Below are positions 4,089 through 14,242 of a stretch of DNA of 64,000 nt, in pieces; within the stretch, counting starts at the first letter, position 1, and every line of letters begins with the position of its first letter. The notes beneath the pieces were generated by a model. It worked only from the letters and a program-made list of their open reading frames with translations, was not told the DNA's origin and searched no databases. Source of the stretch: Arenimonas sp. Lineage in GTDB: Bacteria; Pseudomonadota; Gammaproteobacteria; Xanthomonadales; Xanthomonadaceae. The position numbers and the translations under genes are program-made. The DNA is taken from contig NZ_DASTNG010000017.1 in NCBI RefSeq assembly GCF_035721105.1, positions 23,393-87,392 of the forward strand, in the 5' to 3' direction.

Positions 4089-5791
<1,703 letters not shown>

Positions 5792-5798
5792 CCCCCGA

Positions 5799-5970
5799 TT
5801 ATCACCCGACACCCTCCCCGTTATCACCGGCAAACTCCCTGCCATCGCCCGATACCCTCCCTCCTGTCGCCCGACACCCTCCCTCCTATTGCCCGAGACC
5901 CTCCGTCCCATCGCCCGATACCCTCCCTCTTATCGCCCGATACCCTCCCTCCTGTCGCCCGATACCCTCC
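5799..5970. repeat. Degenerate tandem repeat, 8 units of ~22 nt (consensus CTRTCGCCCGATACCCTCCCTC)
   Basis: Units read directly at 5799, 5821, 5842, 5864, 5886, 5908, 5930 and 5952. The last unit abuts a REP. Confidence 0.9.
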
Positions 5971-6076
5971 CTGTAGGAGCGCCTTCAGGCGCGAAGCTTT
6001 TGGCGGAGCTTTTCGGGAATTCCGTTGATCCCCGAGTCCTTCGCGAAAAGATTCGCGCCTGAAGGCGCTCCTACAG
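5971..6076. repeat. REP doublet (GTAG class, subtype A)
   Basis: CTGTAGGAGCGCCTTCAGGCGCGAA ... TTCGCGCCTGAAGGCGCTCCTACAG inverted pair, intergenic. Confidence 0.92.
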
Positions 6077-6184
6077 GAGGGCGGGATTAATCCCGGGGGG
6101 GCGTTTGGCGAGGTTACGGGAAGGGTTCTCGGGGCCAGAGCTAGCGGGCATCATGGGGGCAGGCTTCCGACCCGCGGTCCCCCC

Positions 6185-7699
6185 ATGTCCCTGATCGTCC
6201 CCGTCCTGCTCTCCGGCGGCTCCGGCACCCGGCTCTGGCCGCTGTCGCGCGAAACCCATCCCAAGCAGTTCCAGCCGCTGGTGGGCGAGCAGTCGCTGCT
6301 GCAGGCGACCTGGCAGCGCCTGGCCGGGCTGGCGGGCGCGGGGGCGCCGATCGTGGTGGCGAACGAGGAGCACCGCTTCATGGTGGCCGAACAGCTGCGC
6401 CAGGTCGGCGTGACCCCGGCCGCCCTGCTGCTCGAGCCGGTGGGCCGCAACACCGCCCCGGCCATCGCCGCCGCGGCCCTGCAGGCCCAGGCCGACGGCA
6501 GTGATCCGCTGCTGCTGGTGCTGCCCTCGGACCACGTCATCCGCGACGAGGCCGGCTTCCGCGCCGCCGTGCAGGCCGCGGTGCCCGCCGCCGAGGGCGG
6601 CCAGCTGGTCACCTTCGGCGTGGTGCCCGCCGCGCCCGAAACCGGCTACGGCTACATCAAAGCCGCCCCGTCCCCTGTAGGAGCGCCTTCCGGCGCGAAT
6701 CTTTCCGCGAAGGGCTTCGCGCCTGAAGGCGCTCCTACAGAGGGGCAGTCGGTGGGGCGGGCGGAGGTGCGGGCGGTGGAACGGTTCGTGGAGAAGCCGG
6801 ACCTCGCCACGGCGCAGGCCTACGTCGCCAGCGGCGACTACTTCTGGAACTCGGGCATGTTCCTGTTCCGGGCCTCGCGCTACCTGGACGAACTGCAGGC
6901 GTTCGCGCCGGCGATGCTGGCCGCGGCCCGGGCCGCGCTGGCCGGGGCCACGCGCGACGTCGACTTCCTGCGCCTGGACCGGGCCGCGTTCGAAGCCTGC
7001 CCGGCCGACTCCATCGATTACGCGGTGATGGAAAAAACTTCTCAGGCCGCCGTGCTGCCGATCTCGGTGGGCTGGAGCGATGTAGGCTCGTGGTCGGCGC
7101 TGTGGGAAATCGCCGACCAGGACCCGGACGGCAATGCCCACCACGGCGACGTGCTGGCGATCGACTGCCGCAACACCCTGGCCTGGGGCGGCCGCCGGCT
7201 GGTCAGTCTGCTGGGCCTGGACGACGTGATCGTGGTCGACACCGACGATGCGCTGCTGGTGGCGGCGCGGGACCAGGTGCAGAAAGTCAAGGAGATAGTT
7301 TCTGCCCTGAAAATTCAGGGTCGTCCGCAGGCCAGCGTGCACCGCAAGGTGTATCGTCCCTGGGGCAGCTACGACGGCATCGACAGCGGCGACCGCTTCC
7401 AGGTCAAGCGCATCGTGGTCAAGCCGGGGGCGGCGCTGAGCCTGCAGATGCACCACCACCGGGCCGAGCACTGGATCGTGGTTAGCGGCAGTGCCCGGGT
7501 CACCTGCGATGACAAGGTGTTCCTGCTGGCCGAGAACCAGAGCACCTACATCCCGCTGGGCAGCAAGCACCGCCTGGAAAACCCCGGCAAGGTGCCGCTG
7601 GAGCTGATCGAGGTGCAATCGGGCAGCTACCTGGGCGAGGATGACATCGTGCGGTTCGAGGACGTGTATGGCCGTGGCCCGGACCCTACGCGGGGCTGA
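6185..7699 (+). CDS. manC: Mannose-1-phosphate guanylyltransferase / mannose-6-phosphate isomerase, with a REP-derived insertion
   Basis: LLSGGSGTRLWPLSR, EPVGRNTAPA, FVEKPD, WNSGMF, C-terminal cupin RPWGSY and LSLQMHHHRAEHW. Confidence 0.95.
   Translation: MSLIVPVLLSGGSGTRLWPLSRETHPKQFQPLVGEQSLLQATWQRLAGLAGAGAPIVVANEEHRFMVAEQLRQVGVTPAALLLEPVGRNTAPAIAAAALQAQADGSDPLLLVLPSDHVIRDEAGFRAAVQAAVPAAEGGQLVTFGVVPAAPETGYGYIKAAPSPVGAPSGANLSAKGFAPEGAPTEGQSVGRAEVRAVERFVEKPDLATAQAYVASGDYFWNSGMFLFRASRYLDELQAFAPAMLAAARAALAGATRDVDFLRLDRAAFEACPADSIDYAVMEKTSQAAVLPISVGWSDVGSWSALWEIADQDPDGNAHHGDVLAIDCRNTLAWGGRRLVSLLGLDDVIVVDTDDALLVAARDQVQKVKEIVSALKIQGRPQASVHRKVYRPWGSYDGIDSGDRFQVKRIVVKPGAALSLQMHHHRAEHWIVVSGSARVTCDDKVFLLAENQSTYIPLGSKHRLENPGKVPLELIEVQSGSYLGEDDIVRFEDVYGRGPDPTRG
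6675..6740. repeat. REP doublet inserted in frame inside manC
   Basis: CTGTAGGAGCGCCTTCCGGCGCGAA...TTCGCGCCTGAAGGCGCTCCTACAG, translated as [22 protein letters not shown]. Confidence 0.92.
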
Positions 7700-7785
7700 C
7701 ACAGGCGGGCTGCAAACTGCTGGATCAACGCGATCCTGAACCGGGCCGGGTGGCCTGAAAAAAGGAAAAAGGCGTTTTCATCCGC

Positions 7786-8922
7786 ATGGACTACCTCAAA
7801 CTCATCGACCAGCTCGAACCCCAGGCCTGGCAGCGGCTCGCCTTCAGCTTCGCCGCCTGCACCCTGCTGATGCCGCTGGCGCTGCCGCTGGCGCGCCGGT
7901 TCGGCCTGGTCGACCACCCCGGCGGCCGCAAGGACCACGGCTGCGCGATGCCGGTGGTGGGCGGGCTGGTGATCTACCTGGTGGTGGTGGCCGGGTTCCT
8001 GCTGTTCGAACAGACCAACAGCCTGCGCACCTGGGCCTTCATCGGCGGTGCCGGGCTGCTGGTGCTCGTGGGCCAGCTGGACGACTACTACGACCTGCGC
8101 TGGACCTGGCGCATCGGCGCCCAGTCGGTGGCGGCGCTGCTGATGGCCCTGGCCGGCGGCGTGATGGCCACCAACCTGCAGGACGTCTTTGGTTTCGCCG
8201 CGGCCAACATCGGCCTGCTGGCGGTGCCGTTCACCGTGTTCATCGTGGTCGGCGTCATCAATGCGCTGAACATGGCCGATGGCGTCGACGGCCTGGCCGG
8301 CAGCCTGTCGGTGGTGGCGCTGGTGCTGTTCGCGGCCTTTGGCCTGTACTCGGGCAACCTGCTGGTGGTCGAGCGCATGCTGGCGGTGGCCGCGGCGGTG
8401 CTGGGCTTCCTGGTCTGGAACGCGCGCTTCCCCTGGCAGGCGAGGGCCAAGGTCTTCCTGGGCAACGGCGGCAGCATGCTGCTGGGCTTCACCATTGCCT
8501 ATGGTTCGGTGCGGCTGTCGCAGGCGCCCGACCATCCGGTGTCGCCGGTGCTGGGGCCGTGGGCGCTGGCGCTGCCGCTGATCGACTGCGTCGCCCTGAT
8601 GATCCGCCGCTGGCGCCAGGGCCGCTCGCCCTTCGCGGCCGACCGCCACCACATGCACCACATGCTGCTCGACGCCGGCTTCCGGGCCACGGCCGTGGTG
8701 GCGATCATCGCCGGCGGCTCGCTGCTGCTGGGCCTGGCCGCGGCCGTGGCGCTGAAGCTGGGCGTGTACCGGCCGCTGCTGGTGCTGGCCTTCCTGGTGT
8801 TGCTGGCGGGCTGGTACGCATTCAGCGCCGATTACGACCGCGCGGTCGCGAGGCTGGCAGGCTGGCGCAAGGCCCGCCGGCCCGGCCCCAGCGCCGACGC
8901 CGCGGAATCGGAAGCCCATTGA
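7786..8922 (+). CDS. wecA: MraY/WecA-family undecaprenyl-phosphate HexNAc-1-P transferase (initiating glycosyltransferase)
   Basis: DHPGGRKDH, GQLDDYYDL, NALNMADGVDGLA, VFLGNGGS (variant of FMGDxG), ADRHHMHHML. Multi-TM. Confidence 0.8.
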   Translation: MDYLKLIDQLEPQAWQRLAFSFAACTLLMPLALPLARRFGLVDHPGGRKDHGCAMPVVGGLVIYLVVVAGFLLFEQTNSLRTWAFIGGAGLLVLVGQLDDYYDLRWTWRIGAQSVAALLMALAGGVMATNLQDVFGFAAANIGLLAVPFTVFIVVGVINALNMADGVDGLAGSLSVVALVLFAAFGLYSGNLLVVERMLAVAAAVLGFLVWNARFPWQARAKVFLGNGGSMLLGFTIAYGSVRLSQAPDHPVSPVLGPWALALPLIDCVALMIRRWRQGRSPFAADRHHMHHMLLDAGFRATAVVAIIAGGSLLLGLAAAVALKLGVYRPLLVLAFLVLLAGWYAFSADYDRAVARLAGWRKARRPGPSADAAESEAH

Positions 8923-9761: not shown

Positions 9762-10487
9762 ATGACCCATTCCATCCTCCGGACCCTCGCTGTCCTGTTC
9801 CTTGCCACGCTGCTGGTGGCCTGCGGCACCTCGACCAGCCAGTCGGTGCGGTCGGGCACCAGCAAGGCCGTCACCGCCACCGACGAGCTGGGCGAGCCCG
9901 ACACCCGCGCCGACTCCGGCGCCTACACCGGCAGCAGCGAATACCGGGTCGGCCCGCAGGACCTGCTCGAGATCAGCGTGTTCCAGGTCAACGACCTCAA
10001 CCGCACCGTGCGCGTGAACAGCAATGGCCAGATCTCGCTGCCCCTGATCGGCGTCGTCCAGGCCGGCGGCAACACCGTGCAGGAGCTCGAGGCGCTGGTG
10101 GCGCAGAAGCTGTCCGACCAGTACCTGCAGTCGCCGCAGGTCAGCGTGTTCGTCAAGGAATTCACCAGCCAGCGGGTGACGCTGGAGGGCGCGATCGCCA
10201 AGCCCGGCATCTATCCGATCACCGGCAAGACCTCGCTGCTGCAGGCGCTGGCCATGGGCGGCGGGCCGTCCGAGCTGGCCAACCTGCAGGGCGTGGTGGT
10301 CTTCCGCGTGGTCGACGGCCAGAAGATGGCCGCGGTGTTCGACCTCAAGCAAATCCGCGCCGGCGATGCCGTCGACCCGCAGATCTACGGCGACGACATC
10401 GTGGTGATCGACCAGTCCGGCGCCAAGACCGGCCTGCGTCGCATCCTGGAAACCATCCCGGTCTTCAATCTGTTCCGCGTCTACTGA
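9762..10487 (+). CDS. wza: Polysaccharide export lipoprotein (Wza/EpsE-like, Poly_export + SLBB)
   Basis: CAGGAG RBS, lipobox LVAC, YRVGPQDLLEISVF, GQISLPLIG. Confidence 0.85.
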   Translation: MTHSILRTLAVLFLATLLVACGTSTSQSVRSGTSKAVTATDELGEPDTRADSGAYTGSSEYRVGPQDLLEISVFQVNDLNRTVRVNSNGQISLPLIGVVQAGGNTVQELEALVAQKLSDQYLQSPQVSVFVKEFTSQRVTLEGAIAKPGIYPITGKTSLLQALAMGGGPSELANLQGVVVFRVVDGQKMAAVFDLKQIRAGDAVDPQIYGDDIVVIDQSGAKTGLRRILETIPVFNLFRVY

Positions 10488-10514
10488 CCGGCCGCTTTCC
10501 AAGGGAATGACCTG

Positions 10515-12800: not shown

Positions 12801-14242
12801 TGGCCGGCGCCGGCCATGCACTGGAGCAGGCCCTGGCCTACTACCGTGCGCCGGCGCGGCTGGCGATGGCGGCGCACCGGCCGCTGCCCGACGACCTGAT
12901 CGAACTGCTGCGCCTGGCCGCGGGCGACGGCGCCCAGGCCGCGGCCAGCGCCGCGGCCAGCGGCGAATCGCCCGAACGCGTGGCCGAGGCCGCGGTGTTC
13001 TTCGTGCAGCAGGTGATGTTCGCGGCCGGGGCCGACCCGCACCGCGTGCTGGGCGTGAACCCCGGCGCCCCCGCCGCCCGCATCCGCGAGCACTACCGCT
13101 GGCTGATCCGCTGGCTGCATCCCGACCGCAACGCCGACGACTGGGACAACGTCTACACCGACCGCGTCACCCGCGCCTGGCAGCAGCTTCGCCGCAGCGG
13201 CGCGCTGGCGGGGGAGGGCGGGGCCGACGCCGGCGAGTCCGCGGCCGAAGCCGCGCAGGACGCCGAATGGTCCCGGCTCGCCACCCGCGGCCGGCCCACG
13301 CCCGACGCCGCGCCGCGCGCCGCTGAGCCCGCCGCCGCCGAGGCCCCGGCCGCCGCCCCGCGCGCGACCGAACTCCCGGTCGCGCTGGCCCGCATCTCCC
13401 GCGAAACCGACGCCGCCCCCATCCTCTCCGCCCGCACCGCCCGCCGCCTGCCGGTGTTCGTGCTGGGCGGCCTGGGCCTGGCCGCCGTCAGCCTGGTCGC
13501 CCTGCTGTGGGTCGCCCAGCAGCAAAAAGCCGCGCGCCCGACCCTGGCCCGCGTCGAGCTGCCCGCCGTCGACGTGCCCCGCGAATCGCCCGCGATCCCC
13601 GGCGCCGCCCGCGCCAGCCTCGAGCTCCCCGCGCCCGTCCTCCCCCTCCTGCCCGCCATCCCCGCGCCCACCCCCTCCCCTGTAGGAGGGCCTTCAGGCC
13701 CGAATCTTTCCCCCGCCATCTCCGCGCCCAACCCCGCCCGCCCGCCCGCCCCGGCCGTGCCGCTGGCCGGCGACGCGCAAGCGGCGCCGGTACCGCAGGT
13801 CGCGGCGGAAAGCTTCGGGCCTGAAGGCCCTCCTACAGGGGAGGGCGTGGCGGCAGCGGAGACCGAGGCCACGGCCCCGCCAGCGCCGATGGACGAAGCC
13901 AGCGCCCGCGCCGTGCTCGCGAAGTTCAGCGCGGCCTACGCGGCGGGCGACATCAACGCCCTGATGCGCCTGTTCACCCGCGACGCGCGCAACAACCGCG
14001 GCGGGCGCGACGCCATCGTCTACGACTACCAGTCGCTGTTCGCGCGGTCCCGCGAGCGCCGCCTGGACCTGCAGCCCAACGGCTGGATCACCGGCGACAG
14101 CGGCGCCGTGGTGCTGGCCGAGTACGCGGCCTGGGTGAAAGAGGGCCGCCTGTTCCCCGGCAGCACCACCCGCGGCACCATCCGCTTCACCCTGCGCCGC
14201 GAAGACGGCGAACTGAAGATCAGCCAGGTGATCCATGACTGA
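12800..14242 (+). CDS. J-domain (HPD) membrane protein with Pro-rich linker and C-terminal NTF2/SnoaL-like domain
   Basis: HRVLGVNPGA...HYRWLIRWLHPDRN, one TM (VFVLGGLGLAAVSLVALLWV), C-terminal ARAVLAKFSAAYAAGDINALMRLF. TGATG coupling to wzc. The domain calls are by eye. Confidence 0.65.
   Translation: MAGAGHALEQALAYYRAPARLAMAAHRPLPDDLIELLRLAAGDGAQAAASAAASGESPERVAEAAVFFVQQVMFAAGADPHRVLGVNPGAPAARIREHYRWLIRWLHPDRNADDWDNVYTDRVTRAWQQLRRSGALAGEGGADAGESAAEAAQDAEWSRLATRGRPTPDAAPRAAEPAAAEAPAAAPRATELPVALARISRETDAAPILSARTARRLPVFVLGGLGLAAVSLVALLWVAQQQKAARPTLARVELPAVDVPRESPAIPGAARASLELPAPVLPLLPAIPAPTPSPVGGPSGPNLSPAISAPNPARPPAPAVPLAGDAQAAPVPQVAAESFGPEGPPTGEGVAAAETEATAPPAPMDEASARAVLAKFSAAYAAGDINALMRLFTRDARNNRGGRDAIVYDYQSLFARSRERRLDLQPNGWITGDSGAVVLAEYAAWVKEGRLFPGSTTRGTIRFTLRREDGELKISQVIHD
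13680..13838. repeat. REP doublet (subtype B) inside the J-domain protein CDS
   Basis: CTGTAGGAGGGCCTTCAGGCCCGAA at 13680 and TTCGGGCCTGAAGGCCCTCCTACAG ending at 13838, both translated. Confidence 0.9.

Follow-up and report, generated by a model that had tools for sequence, protein, structure and literature searches.

How does a core enzyme of nucleotide-sugar metabolism come to carry a mobile repeat in the middle of its reading frame, and what becomes of the protein? The question is raised by the gene manC (xanB), located on the forward strand at positions 6185..7699 of the 64,000-nucleotide (nt) stretch of Arenimonas sp. DNA analyzed here as a whole (the window). The source genome, referred to below as G000, is a 2.97 Mb draft (70% G+C, 87 contigs, estimated completeness 94.8%). 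The gene encodes, without any interrupting stop, a 504-amino-acid (aa) bifunctional mannose-1-phosphate guanylyltransferase/mannose-6-phosphate isomerase. Our interpretation, to which we assign a probability of about 85%, is that manC contains an in-frame doublet of repetitive extragenic palindromic (REP) units, a REPIN, at the tip of a β-hairpin, and that the enzyme tolerates the resulting disordered peptide as a passenger.

The doublet itself is well delimited. A repeat search of the window found two inverted arms (6672–6699 and 6716–6743) of 28 nt each, 93% complementary and 16 nt apart; comparison with empty sites assigns to the element the forward-strand block 6671..6742, i.e., 72 nt or 24 in-frame codons (S163–E186). 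A preceding sequence-only reading had described a REP doublet at 6675–6740, in frame and with the open reading frame (ORF) intact on both sides, which is confirmed here. The left REP (6677..6699, forward strand) consists of a GTAG head and the hairpin GCGCC-TTCC-GGCGC, differing from the master sequence at a single loop position (A>C) without altering the amino acid encoded in ManC. The right REP (6716..6738, reverse strand, hence inverted) has a 22-nt core identical to the commonest REP of G000, present in 125 copies; both units belong to the subfamily designated CGCC. The GT(A/G)G head characteristic of the class is found as GTAG at 6677 (+) and 6738 (−), followed in each arm by the GC-rich imperfect palindrome GCGCC-TTCN-GGCGC, and each arm holds the unit GTAGGAGCGCCTTC(A/C)GGCGCGAA. 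The 23-nt REP core GTAGGAGCGCCTTCNGGCGCGAA is matched 16 times in the window (≤3 mismatches), against 0.00 matches expected from 100 shuffles. With its 18-nt spacer the manC copy shows few differences from the consensus of the 18-nt-spaced doublets of G000 (ccccTGTAGGAGCGCCTTCAGGCGCGAAtCTtTTCGCGAAgaGcTTCGCGCCTGAAGGCGCTCCTACAgggg), and the whole doublet, taken as RNA, has a predicted folding energy of −60.3 kcal/mol. By every sequence criterion, the manC element is a GTAG-type REP doublet (REPIN).

Across the many contigs of G000, the core pattern GTRGGAG-N4-TTC-N5-CGA has 189 exact matches, and the reversed pattern used as a control has none. Two stem types were distinguished: 125 copies with GCGCC/GGCGC (the CGCC subfamily) and 42 with GGGCC/GGCCC (the GGCC subfamily). 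The units form 64 convergent pairs, with 18 nt between the cores in 18 pairs and 19 nt in 33. Three genes for Y1 transposases (PF01797) were found. One of them (contig C25, 198–521; 26.1 bits at a cut-off of 23) is flanked on both sides by CGCC REPs (54–75, 614–635 and 680–701), and no REP lies within 1.5 kb of the other two, on C53 and C78. Judged by this layout, the C25 gene and its flanking units are the "REPtron" arrangement that defines a REP-associated tyrosine transposase (RAYT). REPINs are non-autonomous mobile elements, presumably moved by such a Y1 enzyme; the empty and filled sites found among congeners are an indirect indication that the RAYT may do so here.

A search of 30 related genomes with ManC revealed what the uninterrupted site looks like. 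Most ManC genes of the same genus match the query in two pieces, approximately residues 1–162 and 194–498, and lack the insert. Five same-genus genomes (G015, G007, G012, G010 and G001) fix the empty site by alignment, reading GYGYI(K/Q/N)AA(A/P/T)G(E/Q)GVR..FVEKPD; the codons from ETGYGYI through FVEKPD occupy 78 nt in these five and 165 nt in G000. Counted between GYGYI and FVEKP, the loop has 13 residues in the empty sites and 42 in G000, a difference of 29 aa. The sequence-only reading had estimated an insertion of about 22–30 aa; this stands for the REPIN itself (24 aa), with the refinement that the 29-aa difference also includes a separate expansion of six residues. The latter, SVGRAE (S189–E194), is encoded by 18 nt at 6749..6766 on the forward strand, has no counterpart in empty-site orthologues and possibly arose by slipped duplication of the adjacent VRAVE-coding stretch; GCGGGCGG is present twice near it, 12 nt apart.

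The surrounding protein looks like a regular member of its family. Its Pfam architecture is NTP_transferase, ManC_GMP_beta-helix and MannoseP_isomer/Cupin_2, with an N-terminal nucleotidyltransferase domain (PF00483, E = 4.4e-59), a linker (PF22640, E = 8.9e-16) and a C-terminal cupin (PF01050, E = 2e-59; also PF07883). The GGxGxRLWPLS-type motif is present as LSGGSGTRLWPLSR at residues 9–22. By sequence, the closest solved structures are 2x5s (Thermotoga GDP-mannose pyrophosphorylase) and 2cu2 (Thermus), and also 2qh5. An AlphaFold2 model built on a 77-sequence alignment is confident overall (mean predicted local distance difference test score, pLDDT, 88.2; predicted template-modelling score 0.83) and matches the GDP-mannose pyrophosphorylases 2cu2 and 2x65 (Foldseek template-modelling score 0.86–0.90, target-normalised).

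In this model, the insert lies between two β-strands assigned by DSSP, one on its N-terminal side (residues 157–160; 6653..6664, forward strand) and one on its C-terminal side (residues 196–202; 6770..6790, forward strand), which runs into the conserved FVEKPD motif. Residues F201, V202, E203, K204 and P205 are invariant among the 77 sequences. Everything between the two strands is coil, with mean pLDDT per ten-residue block falling from 66 (161–170) to 42 (171–180) and 40 (181–190). The REP insert is thus predicted to form the extended, disordered tip of a β-hairpin whose base joins the invariant FVEKP, and the structural placement proposed from the sequence alone agrees with this low-confidence tip in a confident model. 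In the related enzyme RmlA, the equivalent hairpin presumably bears sugar-phosphate-binding residues at its base and exposes its turn on the surface.

The coding properties of the repeat are telling. According to the length of its spacer, a doublet contains stops in one or in two of its three reading frames. In the consensus doublet with an 18-nt spacer, exactly one frame is stop-free, starting PVGAPSGA(N/K), and this is the frame that ManC uses; in it the doublet core measures 69 nt, a multiple of three. Owing to the near-palindromic structure, a near-identical open frame is offered in either orientation. The encoded peptide is rich in Pro, Gly, Ala and Ser and about 24 residues long, so that insertion of a doublet in its stop-free frame would yield a disordered segment of this size, which the enzyme would carry as a neutral passenger. 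Extra lengths at filled sites are 87 nt in G000, 66 nt in G017, 57 nt in G014 and 36 nt in G008, all of them multiples of three.

Purifying selection acts on both sides of the repeat. With the loop masked (448 codons), the ratio of nonsynonymous to synonymous substitution rates (dN/dS) is 0.12 between G000 and G017 and 0.14 between G000 and G014, the same range as in comparisons with insert-free genes. For the three pairs of REPIN carriers, dN/dS is 0.12–0.18 over the 153 codons upstream of the loop and 0.10–0.12 over the 295 codons downstream, at synonymous divergence (dS) of 0.3–0.6. An untranslated 3′ part would not stay clean at such divergence, which argues that the frame is read through the repeat, and we infer that the REP peptide is produced. 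The same selection pattern suggests that the protein retains the activity of a type II enzyme (phosphomannose isomerase/GDP-mannose pyrophosphorylase).

These data bear directly on two rival explanations. The first supposes that manC is broken in practice, being a young pseudogene whose product stops at the hairpin or misfolds; the very stable predicted hairpin would fit such a course. The low downstream dN/dS among the three REPIN-bearing species speaks against it, as do the failure to find a second full-length manC in the G000 draft, where the other matches to ManC are REP peptides only, and the preservation of the frame in all nineteen two-armed inserts described below. We therefore regard a pseudogene as very improbable. 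The second supposes that the ribosome bypasses the hairpin, as in phage T4 gene 60 and the mitochondrial "byp" elements, giving a protein devoid of the REP peptide. A long GC-rich hairpin within a coding region invites this comparison, and mobile GC-rich inserts are indeed bypassed in yeast mitochondria. However, a bypassed element can do without an open frame and without a length in multiples of three, and a stop commonly follows its take-off codon, whereas every in-gene copy examined here is stop-free, with length differences that are all multiples of three. An open frame combined with such lengths is the signature of ordinary translation, arguing against bypass and pseudogene alike, and bypass in particular appears to have next to no chance of being correct.

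A technical origin was also considered, in which the doublet would have been mis-assembled into manC. G000 is a repeat-rich draft of 87 contigs, with REPs at several contig ends, and errors of this kind would be conceivable. With its 72 nt, however, the element does not reach the length of a read, and its position (C17:30069–30130) is well away from the ends of the contig. Moreover, a doublet occupies this loop in four independent assemblies (G017, G014, A. alkanexedens and A. metalli), of which that of G014 is a single contig of 3.03 Mb. An assembly artefact can hardly be credited under these circumstances.

The variability of the loop was then viewed at two evolutionary distances. Among 78 distant homologues it mostly has 13–20 residues, with a few cases of 22–35, which suggests that the position tolerates length variation in general. 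The claim that homologues possess only a short variable loop here thus holds for distant relatives, but not within the genus. Of the 120 Arenimonas-type ManC proteins retrieved by a protein search, 115 yielded an extractable loop sequence. Both REP arms are present in 19 of the 115 and one recognizable arm in 17, so that a REP-derived insert or remnant occupies the loop in 36; a bare loop of 13 residues is seen in 46, and the remaining 33 are of intermediate length, some of them having plainly arisen by loss of an internal part of a REPIN (e.g., KSAAS-LPQ).

The nineteen two-armed inserts fall into several subfamilies, all in frame. Six are GGCC/GGCC (VGGPSGP..GPEGPP), five CGCC/CGCC (VGAPSG..APEGAP), five GGAC/GGAC (VGGTSVP..GTEVPP) and one GGGC/GGGC (VGGASAP..GAEAPP), and two are chimeras, GGCC/GGAC and GGGC/GGAC. 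At the DNA level, the ManC doublet is CGCC/CGCC in G000, GGAC/GGAC in G017, GGGC/GGGC in G014 (A. daejeonensis), GGCC/GGCC in A. alkanexedens and GGCC/GGAC in A. metalli; G008 retains a one-arm remnant. In all five genomes checked at this level, the subfamily found in manC is one resident in the same genome. CGCC dominates in G000, most of the listed G017 copies are GGAC, and G014 has several copies of its own type; in A. alkanexedens, GGCC accounts for 15 of 16 REPs within 21 kb, and A. metalli contains a mixture of GGCC and GGAC.

The distribution on the ManC tree was used to examine how often the loop had been entered. A single ancient insertion, lost wherever it is now absent, was rejected for G014, which groups with the insert-free G015 as its sister at 96% support and is nested among many orthologues with pristine loops. 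Its REPIN represents an independent gain, giving at least two gains in total.

The recurrence of REP sequences at this loop might alternatively mean that the insert has been co-opted, its mRNA hairpin adjusting how ManC is translated or how stable the mRNA is, in the service of exopolysaccharide synthesis, or the loop acting as a protein linker. Occupancy in 36 of 115 proteins would be in line with such a role, and so would the near-perfect hairpins of G000, G017, G014 and A. alkanexedens (−56 to −62 kcal/mol where folded) and the second REPIN found just upstream of manC in REP-rich genomes. Against this stand the 46 bare loops and the many one-arm remnants and internal deletions, which indicate decay and not conservation; the encoded peptide is also wholly different between subfamilies. 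In addition, intergenic sites and the gene for TsaD show this turnover as well, which is therefore not specific to ManC. Overall we consider co-option improbable, although it has more in its favor than the other alternatives discussed above.

One consideration nevertheless weighs against the passenger interpretation: the very stable predicted mRNA hairpin (about −60 kcal/mol), which a ribosome would have to unwind, might slow or abort translation of the putative full-length protein. Functional neutrality of the insert is an assumption, and the distance of the loop from the active site was judged by secondary structure and pLDDT. With these reservations, the view that a peptide derived from selfish DNA resides in a surface loop of ManC, in a manner resembling the palindromic elements of Rickettsia but in a free-living gammaproteobacterium, is supported by the empty sites, the structural model, purifying selection and about twelve genes with in-frame REPs in the same genome.

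If the in-frame REPIN is accepted, its present sequence still has to be accounted for. G000 and G017 are sisters (100% support, dS 0.28) and bear different subfamilies at the same ManC codon position, and G017 contains no exact copy of the commonest G000 REP anywhere in its genome. Six REP sites of the 64-kb window are filled in both genomes, namely upstream of manC, the ManC loop, the linker of a J-domain protein, and positions near 41.26, 44.25 and 52.9 kb; only at one of the six, near 44.25 kb, is the subfamily the same. The site in the TsaD gene behaves similarly, with a CGCC doublet in G000, a GGCC doublet in G017, a remnant in G008 and an empty site in seven other genomes. The in-gene arms are identical or nearly so to the master sequence of each genome. 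On the ManC tree, the subfamilies form the series GGCC/GGCC (A. alkanexedens), GGCC/GGAC (A. metalli) and GGAC/GGAC (P0004 and G017).

So many shared positions are not explicable by independent random insertion, and point mutation cannot convert four stem segments together into the master sequence of another genome. The simplest interpretation is that a site, once occupied, is inherited while its REP content is overwritten, possibly arm by arm in view of the chimeric doublets. We tentatively propose that REPIN sites, including those in essential genes, may be heritable "landing pads" overwritten arm by arm by whichever REP/RAYT subfamily is active in the lineage, a proposal that we rate at slightly less than even odds. 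The manC copy would have acquired its present form in the G000 lineage, having either inserted there or replaced an earlier REPIN of that site, probably when a RAYT recombined REPs with one another. Studies of palindromic units in E. coli and Salmonella during the 1990s reportedly described species-specific sequences at shared loci; our literature search for concerted REP evolution at orthologous loci was unproductive.

A biochemical basis for such exchange has been described in E. coli, where the transposase TnpA(REP) was shown in vitro to cut DNA at REPs and to carry out strand exchange from one REP to another (Ton-Hoang et al. 2012, NAR 40:3596, PMC3333891). The same authors proposed that integration occurs when an excised bacterial interspersed mosaic element (BIME) recombines with a target already bearing a REP or BIME (PMC3333891). 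By analogy, this mechanism would give exactly the pattern seen in Arenimonas. That work concerned intergenic E. coli BIMEs and in vitro reactions, whereas the replacement of subfamilies in Arenimonas is deduced from comparative data.

ManC is not the only gene of G000 affected. The 140 REP clusters of the genome (units with ≤3 mismatches) were tested for a coding-like open frame of at least 50 codons on each side, with G+C content at third codon positions (GC3) above 0.8 and GC1 exceeding GC2, and 12 of them (about 9%) were in frame. Host genes were matched to coordinates by listing order. Besides ManC (C17:30069–30130), hosts recognized by Pfam are an ABC-F ATPase (C54:6521–6542), a 2-oxoacid dehydrogenase E2 subunit (C29:16408–16490) and a lipoyl-bearing dihydrolipoamide dehydrogenase, E3 (C21:72898–72968). 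TsaD (C39:78507–78583) was identified by translation and confirmed by orthologues. Translation only identifies methionyl-tRNA synthetase (C36:15480–15541), a fused MeaB-mutase with two clusters (C19:8172–8233 and 10476–10497), phosphoenolpyruvate carboxylase (C84:18115–18169) and DnaE2 (C29:59444–59509). The list is completed by a 479-aa protein without a Pfam match (C17:5069–5132) and the J-domain protein (window 13682–13836), which has a weak DnaJ match in Pfam. The mutase REP peptide is identical to that of ManC at 20 of 22 residues.

The J-domain orthologue of A. alkanexedens (L104, 17320–17516) contains four REP units, one GGAC and three GGCC, versus two in G000, which suggests that in-gene REP arrays can grow. 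Separately, the REP-encoded peptide gives rise to seemingly significant local protein matches (E ~1e-6) throughout the genome, in real as well as spurious frames (e.g., C51:9457–9558, C42:7906–8001 and C73:45921–46016).

A second CGCC REPIN is intergenic and occupies 5970..6077, about 110 nt upstream of the manC start (no strand assigned). This site is filled in G017 (GGCC; L002, 1384–1446) and in G014 (GGGT/GGGC; L003, 1364–1443, reverse-complemented), has a remnant in G006 and a GGAC-like doublet in G003, and is empty in G015 and G007; as at the ManC loop, the site is shared between genomes while the subfamily changes. Adjoining it at 5835–5972 is a tandem array of the 22-nt unit CTCCCTCCTATCGCCCGATACC (6.3 copies, 86% matches), situated between a divergent gene for an aminoglycoside phosphotransferase (APH)-like kinase and manC. 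An Rfam scan of 5500–8000 found no known RNA family; the REPIN hairpins scored 24–38 bits against microRNA-precursor models whose gathering scores are 97–100. The idea of an internal terminator in manC was dropped, as a promoter and terminator scan inside the gene yielded nothing beyond chance.

At the level of the genus, the exact CGCC REP is patchily distributed. Over 41 genomes, it is present in 170, 125, 98, 58 and 56 copies in five, in 1–16 copies in seven and absent from 29; the highest number belongs to G050, with 98 copies in G044, 56 in G003 and none in G017, G014 or G015. An initial view of CGCC as specific to the G000 lineage, with GGCC ancestral and CGCC new, was withdrawn in light of this distribution, and we claim no more than the turnover as such. 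In A. metalli, a Y1_Tnp (RAYT) gene (L105, 19703–20388) lies amid GGAC doublets between genes for a CBS-domain protein and a hemolysin-III protein; the matching junction in G000 (window ~44.8–45.0 kb) has no RAYT. As for the assembly of G000, REP units are found within the first 75 nt of six contigs (C5:13–34, C8:4–25, C17:2–23, C25:54–75, C26:53–74 and C34:33–54), and the draft appears to break at REP clusters.

Proteins containing translated palindromes are known from other bacteria, and their comparison with ManC defines what is new here. The Rickettsia palindromic elements (RPEs; Ogata et al. 2000, Science 290:347), which the sequence-only reading took as the best-known case, remain the classic example, but in-protein palindromes are not confined to Rickettsia. 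Dimers of GTAG REPs read in frame as 20–30 aa were catalogued in free-living bacteria in 2013 (Di Nocera, De Gregorio, Rocco 2013, BMC Genomics 14:522, PMC3733652), including X. oryzae, Thauera, Opitutus and Thioalkalivibrio. The hosts listed there comprise DnaE2, 2-oxoacid dehydrogenase E2 and tRNA synthetases, and the insertions were suggested to be neutral and to lie in flexible linkers or loops (PMC3733652). The Arenimonas elements share with these REPs the GTAG head, the hairpin, a mostly head-to-head dimeric organization and the association with RAYT, and the same DnaE2, E2 and tRNA synthetase types carry REPs in G000. The words "mannose" and "guanylyl" are absent from the supplementary tables of that study, in which Arenimonas was not searched for by name. 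Since intragenic GTAG dimers had already been catalogued, the novelty is lower than the sequence-only reading assumed. An in-frame GTAG REP within a protein is documented and ordinary for the field; what is new is the series of states at one loop together with the switching of subfamilies. The 2013 catalogue is a list per genome, whereas a single in-gene site is traced here through 115 orthologues.

With the RPEs, the ManC element shares the nature of a selfish palindrome inserted in frame, the recurrence across numerous housekeeping genes, mostly at sites on the protein surface, and a host protein that stays functional. RPEs are longer, approximately 105–146 bp (PMC3184786), and their hosts are obligate intracellular bacteria; RPE-4 and RPE-6, short intragenic repeats of R. 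conorii, belong to the CGTC-tagged class, which has no known dedicated transposase (PMC3733652). The ManC element, in contrast, bears a GTAG tag, measures 72 bp, is rich in GC and is accompanied by a cognate RAYT. Its behavior is RPE-like, but lacking the traits of the class it is not a member. In other respects, the system resembles the described REPIN-RAYT systems (Bertels and Rainey 2011, PLoS Genet 7:e1002132; Nunvar et al. 2010, 2013), with inverted REP doublets numbering on the order of a hundred or more, a RAYT surrounded by REPs of its own type, multiple subfamilies side by side and differences in REP class among related strains. REPINs were described, however, as almost exclusively extragenic, whereas about 9% of the G000 clusters lie in coding frames.

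For Arenimonas, the ManC loop offers a well-resolved natural series of the states of an in-gene REPIN. In this core enzyme with a single gene copy, a permissive loop passes, under the constraint of the reading frame, from empty through a perfect REPIN, a chimera and a one-arm remnant to an internal deletion. The series shows which frame and spacer lengths allow a REPIN to survive in a gene, that the inserts are quick to decay, and that sister species differ in subfamily at occupied sites. REP-derived peptides mark loops that tolerate insertion; peptides of the PVGAPSGA.. and ..APEGAPT types are a source of false homology between unrelated Arenimonas proteins. The change of subfamilies bears on how REPINs move and how REPIN populations homogenise, and the turnover is testable. 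Should occupied sites indeed act as landing pads, they would provide natural in vivo evidence for REP-targeted recombination, which has so far been seen in vitro only.

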